Part shown: piece after piece, positions 2,534 to 9,540 of the stretch
Position numbering within the stretch: the first letter of the stretch is position 1
Layout: every line of letters starts with the position of its first letter
Source: a virus
Lineage: Duplodnaviria > Caudoviricetes
Direction: 5' to 3' (one strand)
IMG/VR virus record: IMGVR_UViG_3300033407_000018
Location: 1-56,078 of that record
Length of the DNA: 56,078 nucleotides
Translations under genes and position numbers: made by a program
The notes under the pieces: generated by a model
What the model was told of the DNA's origin: nothing
The model's database searches: none
The model's input: only the letters and a program-made list of their open reading frames with translations

Positions 2534-2706
2534 CGCTTCCCGCCTTTCCACTTCCGCAGACTCCGATGGATTTTTAGGTCATGATTCAGCAGGTGCCGAC
2601 TGGCGCTGACCGCTGAAATCCTCGCACCGCAAATCCGGCAGCGGAGTTTCGGTTTGCCGTTGATGATGACGGGGTCGAATTCGCGTTGGTCAAGGCTATT
2701 CATCAT
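2530..2706 (-). CDS. small C2H2-type zinc-finger protein
   Basis: CRIC-x11-HLLNH; translationally coupled to neighbours. Confidence 0.55.
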   Translation of the reverse strand: MMNSLDQREFDPVIINGKPKLRCRICGARISAVSASRHLLNHDLKIHRSLRKWKGGKR

Positions 2707-4744
2707 CACAGCCAGGCTCCCTTCCAACCGACACGCCCACCGCTTCAGCGAGCCGCTGCACATCGACCTCGGGCGGCTGCCATTTTGCGAACGGTGCCAG
2801 CGGATCGATTAACTGATTCGTCGGCCGGTCGTGCCCCATGTGGACACAGCCGAGTTGCCCGATCTCCCGGAACCGGATCTTCTGCACGTGGATATCAACG
2901 CCGTATTCCGGTTGTGAAACATCGCGCCACACTGTGATGCAGTTGTCGGCCTTGTTTCTCCAGTGCGCGGAGTTTCCGTAGATCCCCGGCTTACCGTTCC
3001 TTCGGACTAGGTAAGCGCCAGTCGGGACAGTCAGACAGTAAACCTTCCCTTTGTATGGCTCTTTAGTGACGTGACGGGGTACACGTAGAGTTATTGTTTT
3101 CCGATCCTCTCTGCCGATTGTCACCTGATAACGGCGCTTGTGGTGGGCCTTGACTCCTTCTTGAGATGAGAGGACTGCCATTCGCCCCAACTCAATACTG
3201 AGTCGCTGGATTTGGTCGGCCAATATCGGCGACGTGGTATGCGCCCGAAATGTGTCACGACGTCCAACTGATCCGTCGCCCTCCAAATAAGCGCGCAGAA
3301 GCACCCATTTCTGGCGACAAGACAACCGCCACGTGAAAGACGGAAGCCTTTTGCTTTCCGCCCCGCTTCCACATTCTGCGATGACCATCTTGGCGAAGAC
3401 GTTAGTCGGCTCGTCGTATCGCACGGCTAACCTCGCGGTCCACATTGGCTGTTCGTGTTCCCGGTAATGTGTCACGCGATCTGTAAAAGCGACCCCGAGA
3501 CGCTCGATACATTCCCGCATACGCTTCGCAAGAGGGCCGACAGCCTGACAAAGCGCAATAGACCCTTGAGTCACCCAACCCTCAGCGATCCACCAGCCGA
3601 TAAAACGCAGCGCATCGTCCGACACGTTATAATCCGGATCTGCGTCCATCCAAAAACTGGAAGCCCAAGGCATCACCAGGCCGCTCTTTAAATCCTGAGC
3701 CTCCACGAATACCCATCCGGTTCCGTACTTTTGGGGTCGACCGTAACCAGTTCCTTTGTAATTCGACGTAAATGAAGGCTTTTTCTGCCAAGACGAATCA
3801 ACAACCATGCGGTGATTCGGAGTTACAAGTGCGTCAAAACTTGGCGACTTAATCCGCATCATGTCGCCGTCAAAATCGTAACACCACACCTTCGTTGGGC
3901 GCTGATACCCTAAGAGGCCGTTTCGTGGATTAAAACAGCATACGTAGTCCAGTAGCGACACATCTCGATGTGCCACCCATCCACGACTAGTTAGAACTTC
4001 CGTGGCTTCGTCATGACAACCGCTCACGTCGTAGGGAGTCGGCACCGGATACGTCTGCGCCTCCGTGCCGTCCACCCGTGCGGTTTTGATCCGCTGAAGT
4101 TTCGTCGGGTGCGCCACGAGAAACACGTGAATCTCGTGCTCACGGGCGAACCGGCGGATCCGCGACAGGACTTCCGAGACGTATTCGGTCTCACTTACTC
4201 CGCTGGGGCGCCGATGTTCGAGTTCGTTCCACGGGTCAATCACGAGACCCTGGATGCCAGCGCCGTGGCCGCACAGCATGTCCGTCAACATTAGAATCCG
4301 GTCTACCGTGCAGTCCGACTCCGGGGGATTTAGCCATGTGAAATGCGCGTCGAGGAACATCGACGCCCAGTGGAATTCCTCTTCGGTGATACGAGTACGG
4401 AGTCCGAGATTGAATGGCCGGCCAATGTACTGCGCGGCGAGGTCTGACGCATGGCGCTCGACCGGAAGGTTTTCCGCAGAGAACACCGCCCAACGCCAGT
4501 CTTCACGTCTCGCCAAATTCACCATCAGGCCGTCCAGCAGCGACGTTTTACCGTGACCGGGAATCCCGGTAATCAGCGTCCATTCCCGCGGCCGCACGGT
4601 GTAGTACGGGTCCAGCGACGGCCATCCAGTACGGACCCCAGGTTGAATTCCAGTCTCGTACAACCACCGGAACGCCATACGGAAGTCGTCGACTTTCTGG
4701 ATTTCGTCGCGGGTAATCTCGGTTTTGAAGTGCGGTTTTCGCAT
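2696..4744 (-). CDS. DnaB/T7 gp4 (twinkle)-like replicative helicase, intein-containing
   Basis: TGIPGHGKT Walker A, LVIDPWN Walker B, VAHPTK; the conserved YDVSG-SAHWRNKAD motif is split by an intein. Confidence 0.9.
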   Translation of the reverse strand: MRKPHFKTEITRDEIQKVDDFRMAFRWLYETGIQPGVRTGWPSLDPYYTVRPREWTLITGIPGHGKTSLLDGLMVNLARREDWRWAVFSAENLPVERHASDLAAQYIGRPFNLGLRTRITEEEFHWASMFLDAHFTWLNPPESDCTVDRILMLTDMLCGHGAGIQGLVIDPWNELEHRRPSGVSETEYVSEVLSRIRRFAREHEIHVFLVAHPTKLQRIKTARVDGTEAQTYPVPTPYDVSGCHDEATEVLTSRGWVAHRDVSLLDYVCCFNPRNGLLGYQRPTKVWCYDFDGDMMRIKSPSFDALVTPNHRMVVDSSWQKKPSFTSNYKGTGYGRPQKYGTGWVFVEAQDLKSGLVMPWASSFWMDADPDYNVSDDALRFIGWWIAEGWVTQGSIALCQAVGPLAKRMRECIERLGVAFTDRVTHYREHEQPMWTARLAVRYDEPTNVFAKMVIAECGSGAESKRLPSFTWRLSCRQKWVLLRAYLEGDGSVGRRDTFRAHTTSPILADQIQRLSIELGRMAVLSSQEGVKAHHKRRYQVTIGREDRKTITLRVPRHVTKEPYKGKVYCLTVPTGAYLVRRNGKPGIYGNSAHWRNKADNCITVWRDVSQPEYGVDIHVQKIRFREIGQLGCVHMGHDRPTNQLIDPLAPFAKWQPPEVDVQRLAEAVGVSVGREPGCDDE
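2972..4018 (-). mobile_element. 349-aa intein with LAGLIDADG homing endonuclease
   Basis: Starts CHDEATEVLT, block B TPNHRM, LAGLIDADG-like FIGWWIAEG and LRAYLEGDG, block F VYCLTVP, ends GN followed by extein Ser. Confidence 0.92.
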
Positions 4745-5487
4745 CAGTACACTAGTTCTGGCGGCGTGTTTGTCGGCTTAGCCGGCCTTAGATCTTCACG
4801 TTCCCAGCCGCGGGACTTCAGCCATCGGCACACGTGCGGGATGTACTTTCCGTGCTCTTTCAGCCACTCCGGCGACTTACAGGCGTCGGCTATTGCATTC
4901 TTTATCTCGTCCCGCAAGCCGCTGCTTGGTTTAAGTTTCTGCCACTCTTTGAAAGCGTCAGCTTTGCTTCCGCGACGTGAGGATGACTGCCAGAAAGTTT
5001 CAAACTCTGGTGAGTATTCCCCCGAAGGGGGTTTAGGGGTTTCTTCTTTTGAAGACGGAGACGGAGACTGAAGAGGTTCGTTTTGCTTCGCGTCTGCTTC
5101 AAGTAAATTTAAAGCAGTGCTTCGTTTTGCTTCGCGTCTGCTTCGTCCGCTTTCCAAGCCGCCGTTCTTCCCTGCTTCGATTTTACGCAAGCGAAACTCA
5201 GCCTGTTTTTGACGCTCATGCTCCAAGCGGGGGCTGGTGAGGCGGTCGGGATTTCCGGGTAGTGGACCGAAGCATTCATGCAGGATACCATCCCACATCG
5301 CTTGCATCTTACGCCGCGTCGTCTTGCACATTCGCGCAAGTTTTCCAATGTCGGATGGAATGGAATCGTCCGTCCAGTTATAGGCCAGCAGCCGGACGTA
5401 AGCGCCTTCTTCTTCGAGGCTCATCCGTTGGACCTTCGAGGATGCCAGGTAATCGGCAGCGTAGAACTGGAAGGCCGGCGAATTCAT
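4744..5487 (-). CDS. phage replication initiator (DUF1376/YdaU-like N-terminus)
   Basis: PAFQFYAADYL...EEEGAYVRLL N-terminus, FETFWQ...KADAFKEW C-terminal domain; directly upstream of the helicase; carries internal iterons. Confidence 0.8.
   Translation of the reverse strand: MNSPAFQFYAADYLASSKVQRMSLEEEGAYVRLLAYNWTDDSIPSDIGKLARMCKTTRRKMQAMWDGILHECFGPLPGNPDRLTSPRLEHERQKQAEFRLRKIEAGKNGGLESGRSRREAKRSTALNLLEADAKQNEPLQSPSPSSKEETPKPPSGEYSPEFETFWQSSSRRGSKADAFKEWQKLKPSSGLRDEIKNAIADACKSPEWLKEHGKYIPHVCRWLKSRGWEREDLRPAKPTNTPPELVY
5077..5144. repeat. iteron-like repeats, probable replication origin
   Basis: TTCGTTTTGCTTCGCGTCTGCTTC at 5077-5100 and 5121-5144 around the AT-rich AAGTAAATTTAAAG. Confidence 0.7.
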
Positions 5488-5687
5488 GCCTTCGCCCTCC
5501 GCGCCCGGTCGAATCGCTGGTTCGTTTCCAGCTTAATTTGCGCCAGATCCAACCGCCGCGACTCACAGCACGCCGTCTCAATCTCGCGCTGGATCGCCGC
5601 GTTGAAGTGATCGAATTGCGCTACGTCGAGGGGTAAAGCGTCGGCTGTGCGCTTCCGGTCGGCTATGCTAATTTTTGAAGAGTTCAA
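5484..5687 (-). CDS. small leader ORF coupled to the initiator
   Basis: TTG start; stop overlaps the initiator ATG (ATGA). Confidence 0.55.
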   Translation of the reverse strand: MNSSKISIADRKRTADALPLDVAQFDHFNAAIQREIETACCESRRLDLAQIKLETNQRFDRARRAKA

Positions 5688-5727
5688 ATTGGCACCCTAT
5701 CAAAATCCCTGTCGTAAATGTGAGGAT

Positions 5728-5796
5728 GTGCTGGGGTCGCGCCCGACAGGGTGAGGGCTTCTCGTGGGTTATAAGTCCGCGATCGACCCCCAGCAC
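5728..5796 (-). ncRNA. putative C4/CI-like antisense regulatory RNA hairpin
   Basis: Closing stem GTGCTGGGG(G)TCG/CGACCCCAGCAC; internal CACCCTGTCG is complementary to downstream CGACAGGG and AGGGTG in the leader. Confidence 0.5.
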
Positions 5797-5801
5797 GACG
5801 T

Positions 5802-5830
5802 AATGTATTAAACCCCGGCGCGGATTTCAA
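5802..5830 (-). promoter_or_regulatory. sigma70-like promoter for the replication operon
   Basis: TTGAAA-17nt-TACATT on the - strand. Confidence 0.6.
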
Positions 5831-5850
5831 GCACTTTTATTTCGTTCGGT

Positions 5851-6240
5851 TTACTCGGTGACTTCTTCGGCGACGTTGTGGATTTCGGTTTCCGTTTCAA
5901 TCTGCAACATCAACTGGCGCTCTTCCGGGGTAATCGCGGCAGTCTCGACAATCTCGCCGGTATCCATACGCATGAGTTCTTTTGTGTTGGCCTCGAACAG
6001 GTAGCGCCACTGGCATCCCACGTCGCGGAGTTCTTCGCCGGAGTGGACGATGGTGGCAAGTTGCGACGTGCGGCCGTCGATGACTTCGAGCCGCTCTTTG
6101 AATTTGTCGGCAACGTGCTTTTTCTCGCGCTCGACCTCGCCGTATTCCTGGTGCGCTTGCGCGAGCTTCTGGCCGAACTCGACCTTTTCGGATGTGGTTA
6201 ATTGGACCGGCAAGAATCGCTTAATCGGTTTCGTGTGCAT
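5851..6240 (-). CDS. hypothetical phage protein (coiled-coil)
   Basis: Good RBS (AGGAGA), 129 aa, helical and charged. Confidence 0.75.
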   Translation of the reverse strand: MHTKPIKRFLPVQLTTSEKVEFGQKLAQAHQEYGEVEREKKHVADKFKERLEVIDGRTSQLATIVHSGEELRDVGCQWRYLFEANTKELMRMDTGEIVETAAITPEERQLMLQIETETEIHNVAEEVTE

Positions 6241-6268
6241 CGTTTTCTCCTGTCATCGGACATTTAAA

Positions 6269-6354
6269 CGGAGCGTGAGGGGGTCGAACCCTCCAAGCAT
6301 TTACGCCTGTCCCGTTTCGAGCGGGGTGGGCCTGCCAGCGTGCCCAAACGCTCC
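6269..6354 (-). tRNA. tRNA-Ser(CGA)
   Basis: Acceptor GGAGCGT/ACGCTCC, anticodon loop CTCGAAA, long variable arm, T arm GAGGG-TTCGACC-CCCTC, G discriminator; CCA not encoded. Confidence 0.88.
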
Positions 6355-6359
6355 AATTT

Positions 6360-6542
6360 GCCGGTATAGAGTGAGGTCCGAAACCACTCCGGCGACCGGC
6401 AACGCATTCCCTCAGCCTCTCCGCTGAACCGACACCGTAATTAAGGCGGACTTGCGAGGTCGGACTATGGAATCCTGTGCCGGTATCCCGAGCCACGACC
6501 GGCGGCGTGGTATGGGCGGCTCAAGGAGGTAAGCCGCCTCGG
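6360..6542 (-). ncRNA. three tandem structured RNA domains between tRNA-like genes
   Basis: Nested stems closing 6360-6393, 6395-6484 and 6488-6542; no credible ORF. Confidence 0.5.
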
Positions 6543-6545
6543 TTT

Positions 6546-6690
6546 CCGGGGTGGCCGGATTCGAAACCGGCTGCATCCTGACTAAGTTCTCGCTTGCGCT
6601 TACCTTAGGGTCCGCTGTGCGTGCGATGCTTTTAGAGCCGCTGGCTGGCCGCGCCGCCAGTGCTCGCGCTTCCTTCAGCGCCGCACCCCG
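6546..6690 (-). ncRNA. 145-nt tRNA-like RNA with expanded anticodon/variable region
   Basis: 7-bp acceptor CGGGGTG/CACCCCG, D arm GCGC-TGAAGGAA-GCGC, T arm GCCGG-TTTCGAAT-CCGGC, about 90 nt of extra stems in place of the anticodon arm. Confidence 0.7.
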
Positions 6691-6693
6691 AAA

Positions 6694-6767
6694 TTGCAGC
6701 GCCGGGAATCGAACCCGGTGATGTTGAGTTTATGAGACTCACGAGCCGCCTTTGCTCCATCGCTGCG
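6694..6767 (-). tRNA. tRNA-Met(CAT), initiator-like
   Basis: CGCAGCG/CGCTGCA acceptor with C1:A72 mismatch, GAGC/GCTC D stem, TGAGT-CTCATAA-ACTCA, CCGGG-TTCGATT-CCCGG. Confidence 0.85.
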
Positions 6768-6805
6768 CTTATAATTCCAGCGGCCCAATCGAGCCGCGTG
6801 TTGTG

Positions 6806-7027
6806 TTATTCGCAACCCGCACGGCTGCGAATCTCTTTAGCCCACCAGTCCGGATGCTCTTGGTTCAGCTCACGCAACCGGCTGACGGGCAGTTTGACAA
6901 TATTGGCTGAGCGGTATTCGTCACACACGAACTCCGCCAGCCAGCACGATGCCTGAAGGCACTCCGCACAAACTGTGATGAGCGTTTCCGGTGTCAAGTC
7001 TGCTGTTTGAAACGTTGCGTTGCTCAT
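6806..7027 (-). CDS. hypothetical Cys-rich phage protein
   Basis: MSNATF...VCAECLQASCW...C; coupled to the upstream ORF. Confidence 0.6.
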   Translation of the reverse strand: MSNATFQTADLTPETLITVCAECLQASCWLAEFVCDEYRSANIVKLPVSRLRELNQEHPDWWAKEIRSRAGCE

Positions 7028-7161
7028 ACCCAAATCACCGCATAAACCCCGTACAGCACCACCCCTGCGATAAACCAGCGCATCCACCGGCGTTGACGTT
7101 GACCGCGCAGGTGGCGCTTGTCGTGGAAGGCGATGGCGGCTGCGATTGAGTTCGGGGTCAT
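7024..7161 (-). CDS. 45-aa membrane protein
   Basis: MTPNSIAAA...WFIAGVVLYGVYAVIWV; ATGA overlaps at both ends; below the ORF-track cutoff. Confidence 0.55.
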   Translation of the reverse strand: MTPNSIAAAIAFHDKRHLRGQRQRRWMRWFIAGVVLYGVYAVIWV

Positions 7162-8114
7162 AAAGCCTCCTGAAGTTGCGGCTTAAAGCACCGCGCAATG
7201 TGGCTGGATAGTGGCAGCGGAATCTTCGCGATTTGAGCGGAGGCGGCTTTGCGGGAGTCTGATTTTGACGAGAGGCGGCCAAGTCCTTCCGCGTACCAGG
7301 CCCGACCGGACTTCATGCCAGACTGAAGTCCAGCAACCCGCGTAAAATCTTGACCGCGCTTCGTCCTATCGGACCAATTCAACCCTTGCGATTTGTAGCC
7401 GGTAGACATCACGCTTTCGGTCTGAAACGACCTACCGGAGCCATCGAAGCGAAAGCCTGGATTCTTAAGGCCGTACCTACCATCAAAGTGCCCGCCTTCG
7501 CGGTCCTTCCACATTTGCGGAGAATTTCCAGACGACTTGTGTCCGTGAAAGTTCGTCTCGCCGTTCGACCTATGCGCCACTCCCTGTTTCATGACTTGAC
7601 GGTTCAGTGTTATCGGCATCAAGGCCGGCACGTCGCCCCACAGGTGAAAACTGCCGTAATGCCACTGCGATCGACCTACCCATGGAATCGCCCCACGCAC
7701 GTTTTCGACAATCAGTGGAATGTATCGGCCTGCCGCTTTACACGCTTCACGTTGAATACGAAAGCAGGCGTCAAAGAGGGCCGTCAGCTGATCCAGTGTC
7801 CGAGATCCGCGATAGCCTTCCGGGAATTCATCTTCCCCGCGCAGTGCTCTGGCAATCTGCTTTGCCCGCGTCCACGGCATGGCCATGTATGAGAATTCCG
7901 TGCAGGGCGGACTCGCGACGATAATGTCCGCGTCCTTGAACTGCGAACCGTGTAGCGTGAGTACGTCCTGAATTACAAGGTGGCCCGGATAGCCGCCCGT
8001 CCCGTAATCGTGGCGCTCGATGTCGAATCCCACAACGGTGTAGCCCTCAGTTAGGAAGCCTTCCGCCCAACCACCCAAACCGCAATAGATGTCAATACAC
8101 AACGGCTTACTCAC
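7158..8114 (-). CDS. C5-cytosine DNA methyltransferase-like protein
   Basis: Motif I DIYCGLGG, motif IV ASPPC, motif VI ENV. Confidence 0.8.
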   Translation of the reverse strand: MSKPLCIDIYCGLGGWAEGFLTEGYTVVGFDIERHDYGTGGYPGHLVIQDVLTLHGSQFKDADIIVASPPCTEFSYMAMPWTRAKQIARALRGEDEFPEGYRGSRTLDQLTALFDACFRIQREACKAAGRYIPLIVENVRGAIPWVGRSQWHYGSFHLWGDVPALMPITLNRQVMKQGVAHRSNGETNFHGHKSSGNSPQMWKDREGGHFDGRYGLKNPGFRFDGSGRSFQTESVMSTGYKSQGLNWSDRTKRGQDFTRVAGLQSGMKSGRAWYAEGLGRLSSKSDSRKAASAQIAKIPLPLSSHIARCFKPQLQEAL

Positions 8115-8158
8115 CGGCTTTCCCTTTCTCCCGCCTCTGCGGTACACTGCCGGGCCTT

Positions 8159-9328
8159 ATGCGGCGCAAAACCGGCTCCATTCAATTCCGTGACACGTCG
8201 TGGCGCATCAGCTACTACGACGTCAACCACACCCGGCAGTACGAGAGTTTCCCGACCGAGGAGGAGGCGGTTCGCGAGCTGGCGAAACGGCTGTCGGATG
8301 TCGCGCAGGGCATCCCGGTTACTGCTAAGCCGCACCTGGTGACGTTCGGAGAACTGGCGAACGACGTGGTTCGGCACTACCAGGTCCGCAAACATCGATC
8401 GGTGGATGACATCGAAGCCCGGTTCCGCGTGCACCTGAATCCGGTGTTTGGGCCACGCAAAGCCGCCTCCATCACGTCGGCGCAAATCAACCACTACATC
8501 CTTCAACGGCAGGCTCAGGGCGCGAAGGACGGCACCATCAACAGGGAATTGGAAGCCATAAGACGGGCGTTCAATCTCGCGTTTCAAGGCCGGAAGATTC
8601 TGACGAAGCCTCACATCACGATGCTGCCGGAGCGCAACGTCCGAAGCGGATTCTTCACCCGCGCCGAGGTCGACCGCCTGTGCTCGCACCTGGCGGCGCC
8701 GCTCGATTCGTTCGTGCTGTTTGGATTTCTGACCGGATGGCGCTACGCCGAGATTCAGAACCTCGAATGGCGCAACGTGGACTTTTCGGCCGGCGAGATC
8801 CGGCTGGACCCAGGCACGACCAAAAACGGCGAGGGCCGCGTTTTTCCGATGACGGACGAACTGCGCGCACTCCTGACTGCAGCGCTGGCAGCACAGCGCG
8901 CCAAGGCGGACAAAGTGAAATCCAAGGTCACACCCGCAAGCGCCGCATTCCTGACTTCCGTCTTTACCGCCAACCAAAAGCCCATCGGCCAGTTCCGCAA
9001 GCAGTGGAAAACCGCCTGCTATAAGGCCGGGTTGCCGTGTGTGGTGAAACCGGTCCTCCGCAAGGGAAGACCGGTCCTGGGTAGGGACGGACGGGCGGCA
9101 GTGAAGGTCGTGAAGGCGCAGCGCATCTTCCACGACTTGAGGCGCAGTGCGGCAAGGGAGATGGAACGGCAGGGCGTCAAGCGCAGTGTTATCATGGCCC
9201 TGATGGGACACAAAACCAGCAGCATGTTCGAACGCTACCGGATCGTGGACACTCAAGACTTGCGCGATGCCGTTGCGCTCCTGAATGGTGCCACAGGCGG
9301 TGCCAGAGAGGGGGGCGGTAACCGCTAA
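8159..9328 (+). CDS. int: tyrosine integrase
   Basis: TGWRYAE (R), TTKNGEGR (K), FHDLRR (HxxR), LMGHKT, RY catalytic Tyr. Confidence 0.95.
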   Translation: MRRKTGSIQFRDTSWRISYYDVNHTRQYESFPTEEEAVRELAKRLSDVAQGIPVTAKPHLVTFGELANDVVRHYQVRKHRSVDDIEARFRVHLNPVFGPRKAASITSAQINHYILQRQAQGAKDGTINRELEAIRRAFNLAFQGRKILTKPHITMLPERNVRSGFFTRAEVDRLCSHLAAPLDSFVLFGFLTGWRYAEIQNLEWRNVDFSAGEIRLDPGTTKNGEGRVFPMTDELRALLTAALAAQRAKADKVKSKVTPASAAFLTSVFTANQKPIGQFRKQWKTACYKAGLPCVVKPVLRKGRPVLGRDGRAAVKVVKAQRIFHDLRRSAAREMERQGVKRSVIMALMGHKTSSMFERYRIVDTQDLRDAVALLNGATGGAREGGGNR

Positions 9329-9540
9329 GTCCTTACGGCCCCGTAGCTCAGTCTGGACAGAGCAACGGTTTCCTAAACCTCCACGCCACTTGCCGTTATT
9401 TCCTCGCATACTGTTGCATCCATTGATATGGAGCGGCTTTCACCGTCTCGGTTTTGGGCTTCCGGCACCGTCTTTTCGGTGCCACGTTTTCAACGACTTT
9501 CACGGGCTTCGCTTGGGCTTCGGTGCCGGGAACGGTGCCA
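9287..9540. repeat. GGTGCC(A) arm-type repeats flanking attP
   Basis: Direct pairs with 12-bp period at 9287/9299 and 9522/9534; inverted pair at 9464/9478. Confidence 0.65.
9337..9379 (+). other. attP core: 5' half of tRNA-Arg(CCT)
   Basis: GGCCCCG-TA-GCTC-AGTCTGGACA-GAGC-A-ACGGT-TTCCTAA-ACC, then tRNA similarity stops; lies between convergent int and xis. Confidence 0.8.

Follow-up and report, generated by a model that had tools for sequence, protein, structure and literature searches.

We examine a non-coding locus with tRNA genes in the genome of an uncultured soil phage. The window, by which we mean the whole stretch of DNA analysed, is one entire IMG/VR virus record, 56,078 bp long and estimated by CheckV to be 94% complete. 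The tRNA locus is placed between the phage's methylase module and its replication module, and the credible genes around it lie on the minus strand in every case. Read along the minus strand, the region is made up as follows:

7158-8147, minus strand: C-5 DNA methylase-like gene
6806-7027, minus strand: small ORF, phrog_10857
Between the 6806-7027 ORF and the 129-aa ORF: non-coding stretch with the tRNAs
6694-6767, minus strand: tRNA-Met(CAU), 74 nt (ARAGORN; Rfam; cloverleaf in the MFE fold)
6268-6355, minus strand: tRNA-Ser(CGA) with a long variable arm (ARAGORN; cloverleaf plus extra arm in the MFE fold)
5851-6240, minus strand: 129-aa ORF
4744-5487, minus strand: DUF1376 primosomal/replication-initiation-like protein
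2696-4744, minus strand: DnaB-like helicase with a LAGLIDADG domain

Run on the window, ARAGORN calls no tRNA genes besides a Met(CAU) and a Ser(CGA); the two share the minus strand and stand where the initial annotation had put them. The tRNA-Met is matched by the Rfam model RF00005 at 41.1 bits (gathering score 29; E 3.8e-07 in E-value mode on an 851-nt sub-region), and its cloverleaf MFE has a z-score of -2.9; in the ARAGORN drawing C1 and A72 are mismatched, and an additional base stands between the acceptor stem and the D stem. For tRNA-Ser, whose cloverleaf MFE has a z-score of -2.2, the E-value mode of Rfam returns only a sub-threshold tRNA-Sec match (29.7 bits vs 47). These are two working tRNA genes.

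Between them lies a spacer of 338 nt (6356-6693). That it holds no credible ORF, as the initial annotation had it, is borne out: the ORFs that overlap it are all short (at most 91 aa), and for the longest of those lying within it, a 54-aa minus-strand ORF at 6415-6576, a collection of 5.8 billion proteins contains no homologue, for which reason we reject a coding reading of the spacer. An SD-like AAGGAGGT on the plus strand (6524-6531) was likewise discarded as a sign of coding, its nearest start codon being 19 nt off and the motif being deleted in relatives. A pattern scan of 6200-6900 finds neither promoter-like sites nor terminator-like sites of the minus strand. At gathering score, Rfam gives no match in the whole window; in E-value mode on the 851-nt sub-region the sole match in the spacer is to a eukaryotic lncRNA model and is meaningless (18 bits vs a gathering score of 60). 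The spacer is thus without an Rfam family.

The tRNA-Pro-like element beside tRNA-Met

The upstream part of the spacer had been described as a 'tRNA-mimic'. An element with acceptor, D and T arms does exist there, with the following parts:

6547-6690, minus strand: tRNA-Pro-derived element, 144 nt (fold; genome scan; nhmmer; shuffle test)
6684-6690, minus strand: acceptor 5' strand
6666-6681, minus strand: D arm
About 6582-6665, minus strand: non-tRNA interior
6547-6581, minus strand: tRNA-Pro-like 3' part, with T arm and acceptor 3' strand
6554-6571, minus strand: T arm with an 8-nt loop
6547-6553, minus strand: acceptor 3' strand

The strand CGGGGUG follows the first 3 nt of the spacer and finds a perfect partner 130 nt downstream, giving a 7-bp acceptor stem (CGGGGUG/CACCCCG). 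Two bases past the acceptor 5' strand comes the D arm, GCGC-UGAAGGAA-GCGC, with G18, G19 and A21, and directly before the acceptor 3' strand stands the T arm, GCCGG-UUUCGAAU-CCGGC. The element 6547-6690 thus shares with canonical tRNAs a 7-bp acceptor stem on a 5-bp T stem and a D arm with G18 and G19, while its T loop, UUUCGAAU, departs from the canonical 7 nt by one extra U (8 nt). All three arms are present in both the MFE and the centroid structure of a 150-nt segment (z -2.4; 1 of 200 shuffles folds as well). When the 200 nt upstream of the T arm are shuffled 200,000 times, the acceptor complement arises 5,423 times, and together with a D-arm-like hairpin carrying GG at the right distance only 147 times; taken with the fold, this means that the arrangement of acceptor, D and T arms is not due to chance.

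What the fold lacks is an anticodon arm (5-bp stem, 7-nt loop), in whose place 93 nt separate the D and T arms. Of the anticodon stem, one strand (UCAGG, the 3' one) is recognisable and has no partner strand; the 5' strand and the anticodon loop have been replaced, and the stretch of roughly 84 nt that leads from the D arm to the recognisable 3' part has two separate hairpins. Lacking an anticodon arm, the element cannot decode. ARAGORN makes no call on 6547-6690 in default, intron or relaxed mode, and Rfam has no match to it at E up to 10. We considered an intron-containing tRNA and rejected it, since the anticodon stem lacks its 5' strand and the intron mode of ARAGORN is silent. A tmRNA was rejected as well (none in the default mode of ARAGORN, none in Rfam); with the threshold lowered to 80%, the tmRNA search of ARAGORN gives a single, implausible permuted call that spans both tRNAs.

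To place the element by ancestry we scanned genomes, one per species, with a pattern made of its T arm and acceptor strand in which the extra loop base was optional. At least 120 stretches were found, and all of those among the matches listed are 24 nt long. We extracted 81 matches from 80 loci (among the at least 120), every one with the canonical 7-nt loop, and ARAGORN assigns 75 of the 81 to tRNA-Pro (63 UGG, 8 GGG and 4 CGG), one to tRNA-Trp and the remaining five to nothing. While the 24-nt match of the 3' end to this tRNA-Pro set holds by construction of the search pattern, the 5' ends of the inspected matches read CGGGGTG-TA-GCGC/GCTC, with the acceptor strand as in the element and, in most of them, the same D stem. 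Moreover, nhmmer with an HMM of 74 tRNA-Pro sequences aligns 6581-6547 to HMM positions 41-74 (E 5.6e-05), an alignment that exceeds the search pattern by 10 nt, reaching the variable loop and the anticodon stem's 3' strand. Judged by its sequence, then, the element is by ancestry a disrupted derivative of tRNA-Pro and not a new class of RNA. Of its tRNA-Pro frame all 16 stem base pairs are intact, and it is at single-stranded positions that it has diverged from bacterial tRNA-Pro (positions 8, 9 and 14 among them). A further tRNA fragment is found at 9337-9379 and, like the tRNA-Pro element, breaks at or next to the anticodon loop.

Relatives in sequence collections and soil sequencing runs

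Within the window the block described below, the interior of the element and the leader of tRNA-Met have no second copy (best match 16 nt at 94%). In the collections of sequences, which may leave out records near the window's own, we find no close relative of the locus: blastn of 6200-6830 against 50,697 phage records gives no match, exact scans of IMG/VR with three probes, from the T arm (25-mer), the block (41-mer) and tRNA-Met (24-mer), give none each, and neither do scans of JGI metagenomes with a 24-mer of the block and with the junction of tRNA-Met and the tRNA-like element. The terminase as an anchor recovers 25 loci and the DUF1376 protein 10; by terminase the closest phages have up to 72% identity, on short contigs. 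Three of the 25 terminase-related records were examined whole, one of them a 100%-complete record of 59 kb at 69% identity. There are no tRNAs in 19 loci drawn from the terminase-related records (three of the 25 seen whole) and the 10 DUF1376 loci, and DNA similarity in five terminase-related records is at chance level only. With the 129-aa ORF as an anchor no relative is found, and the 73-aa ORF leads to one locus, which has neither a tRNA nor the intergenic block. The block is also not found in 401 genomes of one candidate host phylum (that of Chthonomonas sp.), where the search gives only short GC-rich matches of 26-51 nt and one ordinary tRNA-Pro.

Near-identical relatives come from public sequencing runs. 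Besides the probable source sample, the search points to four DNA runs of soil or sediment, from as many studies, each of which contains a small share of the region; among the runs containing the region, no RNA run is listed. We compared the contigs of these runs (X2 to X5 below) with the window over 5500-7500 at 80% likeness. Across the soil runs, a block at 6357-6561 and tRNA-Met are conserved at about 97-100%, and it is around them that the relatives differ. Two features are needed to describe these differences:

6542-6804, minus strand: cassette made up of a leader (37 nt), tRNA-Met and the tRNA-Pro-like element, skipped in one relative
6357-6561: conserved non-coding block, comprising the spacer's structured 3' part and the final 15 nt of the tRNA-Pro-like element

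One contig, record 1 of X2 (9264 bp, depth 15), agrees with 6357-6561 except for 2 substitutions and 8 gap letters, has different flanks, and matches again at 6679-6839 with 5 substitutions and 9 gap letters. The 2 substitutions in the 205 nt of the block compare with 9 in the 99 nt of 7023-7121 on the same contig, a stretch whose coding status is not established. Between the two matching stretches, 201 other letters replace 117 nt of the window (6562-6678). The breakpoints of this interior swap fall in the D stem and in the T loop, the most conserved segments of a tRNA, and recombination between tRNA-like sequences would therefore fit. Given that the swap is clean and that all 16 pairs of the frame are intact, a maintained frame fits at least as well as a decaying relic.

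At the other edge of the block, tRNA-Ser is missing from its place in the X2 contig and in that of X5 (record 24, 411 nt), and other letters start directly before 6357. Read on the minus strand, these letters in X2 give a ribosome-binding site and the ATG of a different gene; on our reading of the loose end, the junction on the side of tRNA-Ser has an AAA(U/A)-UUUAAA context common to both sequences. The X5 contig is the same variant as X2 (variant B), with 2 other letters and 8 gap letters in 6357-6561, and in both the indels within the block are limited to the region of one hairpin, hairpin C.

The remaining two contigs bear on the cassette. That of X3 (254 nt) spans 6603-6839 and differs only at 6779-6804, from which it follows that X3 shares the interior of the element and tRNA-Met as they are here; the differences at 6779 and 6785 are read as lying outside the stem of a hairpin that a pattern scan places in the leader (6780-6797). 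In the X2 and X3 contigs that cover tRNA-Met (6694-6767), no differences are listed. In X4 (record 17, 151 nt, depth 2), position 6541 is joined to 6805, so that 263 nt are skipped, namely the leader, tRNA-Met and the tRNA-Pro element; the joint is weak, as one of its sides has 27 nt and is below the threshold of 30 used for flagging. Because tRNA-Ser and the cassette are present or absent among near-identical lineages, we take the conserved unit to be the intergenic block and not an array bounded by tRNAs.

The conserved block and its predicted folds

The initial annotation recognised three self-closing stem domains in this part of the spacer. They are seen in the MFE folds, together with a fourth, weak hairpin:

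6515-6538, minus strand: hairpin C (z -4.5; 0 of 200 shuffles as good)
6493-6510, minus strand: weak hairpin (z -0.5)
6395-6484, minus strand: domain M, branched, closed by ACCGGCA/UGCCGGU (z -2.1; 6 of 200 shuffles as good)
6358-6402, minus strand: hairpin E, closed by UUGCCGGU/ACCGGCAA, an inverted repeat with a TTGCCGGT cluster (z -2.9; 3 of 200 shuffles as good)

The z-scores of the three domains are to be read with the knowledge that the boundaries of the folded segments were chosen after the fold was seen, and are comparable to those of the two real tRNAs (-2.9 and -2.2). The predicted folding of the block as a whole and of the whole spacer is unremarkable: the z-score is -1.44 for the whole 3' block (15 of 200 shuffles as good), and for the whole spacer it is -1.73 when the minus strand is folded and -2.0 for the plus strand, which folds equally well. 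Because the UUGCCGGU strand is common to both, the closures of domain M and hairpin E are mutually exclusive.

Among the two or three near-identical variants known, two changes are compatible with the predicted structures. One is a deletion in the loop of hairpin C, which in the window has a 9-bp GC-rich stem around ACCUCC: the indels of X2 and X5 at 6511-6531 sum to -6, and in our reconstruction the stem is kept and the loop is cut to 4 nt. The other is a G>T substitution at 6477, which on our reading would give the closing stem of domain M a further A-U pair and which also makes a second copy of TTGCCGGTAT exact. In the variant without the cassette, hairpin C begins 3 nt past the stop codon of the upstream ORF.

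The proposal that the RNAs of the locus are aimed at translation finds no support here. Its sole hint is the motif ACCUCCUU in the loop of hairpin C, extending into the 3' strand of the stem, which we take to resemble the anti-SD sequence of 16S rRNA. The motif is lost in X2 and X5, owing to the shortening of the loop by 6 nt, and anti-SD mimicry as a conserved feature is rejected on this ground. An 8-bp complementarity between the interior of the element (6598-6605) and the loop of hairpin C (6527-6534) was set aside too, being at about chance level and lost in variant B.

Readings of the locus

The reading that we favour, at a probability of roughly 0.55, is that of an evolving tRNA islet in a long minus-strand early/replication operon. 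Most likely, tRNA-Met, tRNA-Ser and the disrupted tRNA-Pro are near-exact, tRNA-sized insertions at the edges of an older conserved block (6357-6541). The transcript of the operon would read through the islet, and RNase P and 3' processing nucleases would cut out tRNA-Met and tRNA-Ser for use in translation. The tRNA-Pro-derived element, which offers a 12-bp stack of acceptor and T stems and the D and T loops, would probably be excised too, as a by-product of about 144 nt. The conserved block is most likely a cis-acting intercistronic element at the RNA level: hairpin C may end or stabilise the upstream message, while domain M and hairpin E, with their mutually exclusive UUGCCGGU pairings, may form a leader for the replication genes. 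The function of the block would be independent of the flanking tRNAs.

RNase P and 3' processing are well established to release RNAs at tRNA boundaries, and the initial annotation accordingly saw the tRNAs as possible processing marks. In its full form this alternative says that the tRNAs and the tRNA-like element release functional, trans-acting RNAs, namely a 144-nt RNA framed by tRNA-Pro and an RNA of about 185 nt from the block. The geometry of the locus would permit RNase P and 3' nucleases to make the required cuts: 0-5 nt separate each unit from the next, no stem of the tRNA-Pro frame is broken, and the conservation of the block and tRNA-Met (about 97-100%) holds across soil runs of different studies. 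However, the block persists without tRNA-Ser in X2 and X5 and, over the weak joint of X4, apparently without the tRNA-Met cassette there, and these comparative presence/absence data disfavour the view that the locus is organised by tRNA punctuation. The anti-SD-like loop is not conserved, no Rfam family is matched, no complementarity to a target within the phage exceeds 13 nt, and the folding z-scores are modest. We therefore consider release of trans-acting RNAs unlikely, and the locus does not look like a designed array of new RNAs.

A precedent for such RNAs exists in phage T4, in which RNAC and RNAD, two small RNAs, are processed together with the tRNAs. The T4 RNAs have no relation to the present locus in Rfam or in sequence, and the islet differs from theirs in having two tRNAs and in being polymorphic among near-identical relatives. 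What is alike is the occurrence of non-tRNA RNAs among phage tRNA genes on one strand: as described in the available part of PMC3014915, RNAC and RNAD, whose role is unknown, are transcribed from the tRNA region of T4, while those of the islet are putative.

A second alternative, in our view doubtful, places the function of the block at the level of DNA, as a control region with operators or iterons for a regulator or replication initiator, in which the 'stems' would be inverted repeats bound by protein. The motif TTGCCGGT occurs exactly 10 times in the 56 kb, three times within 6206-6402, and a fourth copy at 6477 has one mismatch, which the G>T of the relatives removes. Also in favour of sites on DNA are the alternating orientation of the copies, the position of the block directly upstream of the DUF1376/DnaB replication genes, and a plus strand that folds no worse than the minus strand. 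Yet the copies are spaced by 152, 37 and 82 bp (start to start) with no helical regularity, and one of them sits inside the downstream ORF and outside the conserved block. Allowing up to one mismatch, TTGCCGGT occurs 112 times across the window vs 56.6 expected, so that the signal is partly compositional, and no regulator has been identified.

Frequent as tRNA genes are as targets of integration, and although the tRNA-Pro-like element and the 9337-9379 fragment both break at or next to the anticodon loop, it is very unlikely that the two are attachment-site debris of integrase recombination at anticodon loops, functionless today, since no integrase family appears in the 20 ORFs scanned (up to 21.3 kb), the IMG/VR record is linear and not a provirus, and integration at a tRNA normally duplicates its 3' part and leaves no 5' and 3' parts around an insert.

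If the ordinary reading of an evolving tRNA islet is true, the locus is a natural snapshot of gain and loss of tRNA genes in phages, in which soil phages that are nearly identical differ in tRNA-sized units, set in at the edges of a single block with almost exactly their mature ends, and in which one copy of tRNA-Pro has been hollowed out at its anticodon arm. This would help in understanding the mobility of tRNA genes and would not be surprising. The locus would matter more if the block of about 185 nt were a new regulatory RNA, or if the tRNA-Pro frame were a maintained carrier for exchangeable RNAs.

The latter idea can be made specific. In engineered tRNA scaffolds, the anticodon arm within a frame of acceptor, T and D arms is swapped for a cargo RNA, and the product is expressed in bacteria. 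The element has a frame of this kind with other sequence in the place of the anticodon arm; the scaffolds are man-made, whereas a natural equivalent here is only a possibility, and to our mind a quite improbable one. On this reading an exchangeable cargo RNA would be cut out and stabilised, and would act on the host in trans, for instance as a decoy or an antisense RNA. The frame of acceptor stem, D arm and T arm would be recognised to this end by RNase P, by 3' nucleases and possibly by the CCA-adding enzyme; the cargo would be about 90 nt here vs about 170 unrelated nt in X2, and cargos would be swapped between phage lineages by recombination in the conserved tRNA segments.

Other systems resemble parts of the locus. 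Plant mitochondrial t-elements, presented in the available part of PMC1920247 as tRNA-like processing signals, are alike in that a tRNA-shaped, non-decoding element could define the ends of RNAs; they belong to an organellar system. Fragments of tRNA genes and pseudo-tRNAs in prokaryotic genomes, the topic of PMC9897764 as far as the accessible portion goes, are likewise tRNA-derived sequences that tRNA finders do not accept as genes. The element differs from them in keeping both pairing ends and three intact stems around a middle of 80-170 nt that is not the same in its relatives. Finally, surveys of IMG/VR phages, according to an excerpt of PMC10690425, list candidate structured RNAs by the thousand, among them tRNA-like ones and others that lie upstream of genes, and like the present block these are conserved intergenic structures in uncultured phages.

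tRNA carriage and identity of the tRNA-Met

We find no tRNA genes in any of the 19 related loci scanned, a set made up of three whole terminase-related phage records (G001-G003, loci L040-L048; 65-69% identity) together with ten loci related through the window's DUF1376 protein (L027-L036). Therefore, carrying tRNAs is a peculiarity of the window's lineage.

One member of the tRNA islet can be read in detail from the ARAGORN drawing:

6694-6767, minus strand, tRNA-Met(CAU), called by ARAGORN

This tRNA has a C1-A72 mismatch and a D stem of GAGC/GCUC, both of them initiator-like features. The linker between acceptor and D stem is three bases long as opposed to the usual two, and the anticodon stem lacks three G-C pairs. 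It may be an initiator, an elongator or an Ile2 tRNA.

At gathering thresholds, Rfam returned no matches when the whole window was searched. Because a search of a short stretch gives this tRNA-Met 41.1 bits, well over the gathering score of 29, its absence from the whole-window result looks like a filter effect.

A tRNA-like fragment outside the islet

The HMM built from bacterial tRNA-Pro genes also matches, at an E-value of 0.25, a second region:

9337-9379, plus strand, 5'-half-tRNA-like sequence, from the tRNA-Pro HMM match and our reading of the sequence

By our own reading, it resembles a tRNA's 5' half, with the acceptor strand GGCCCCG, a D arm GCUC-AGUCUGGACA-GAGC and the stem strand ACGGU followed by the loop UUCCUAA with anticodon CCU (Arg); the resemblance ends 3 nt past the anticodon loop. 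The fragment lies antisense to, and inside the 5' end of, a 432-aa ORF (8111-9409) that received no family assignment in scans of the window's ORFs, and it could be attachment-site debris.

Helicase gene and CCGG-containing words

2696-4744, minus strand, DnaB-like helicase (phrog_239; AAA_25/DnaB_C; LAGLIDADG_3)

In this protein AAA_25/DnaB_C covers residues 36-217, and a LAGLIDADG_3 domain occupies residues 482-550, the presence of which suggests an intein or a homing-endonuclease insertion.

CCGG-containing words are commoner than expected in the phage: allowing at most one mismatch, TTGCCGGT occurs 112 times across the whole window (expected 56.6, sd 7.3), a count reached by 0 of 100 shuffles. 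The same phage encodes a C-5 cytosine methylase-like protein beside the tRNA islet.
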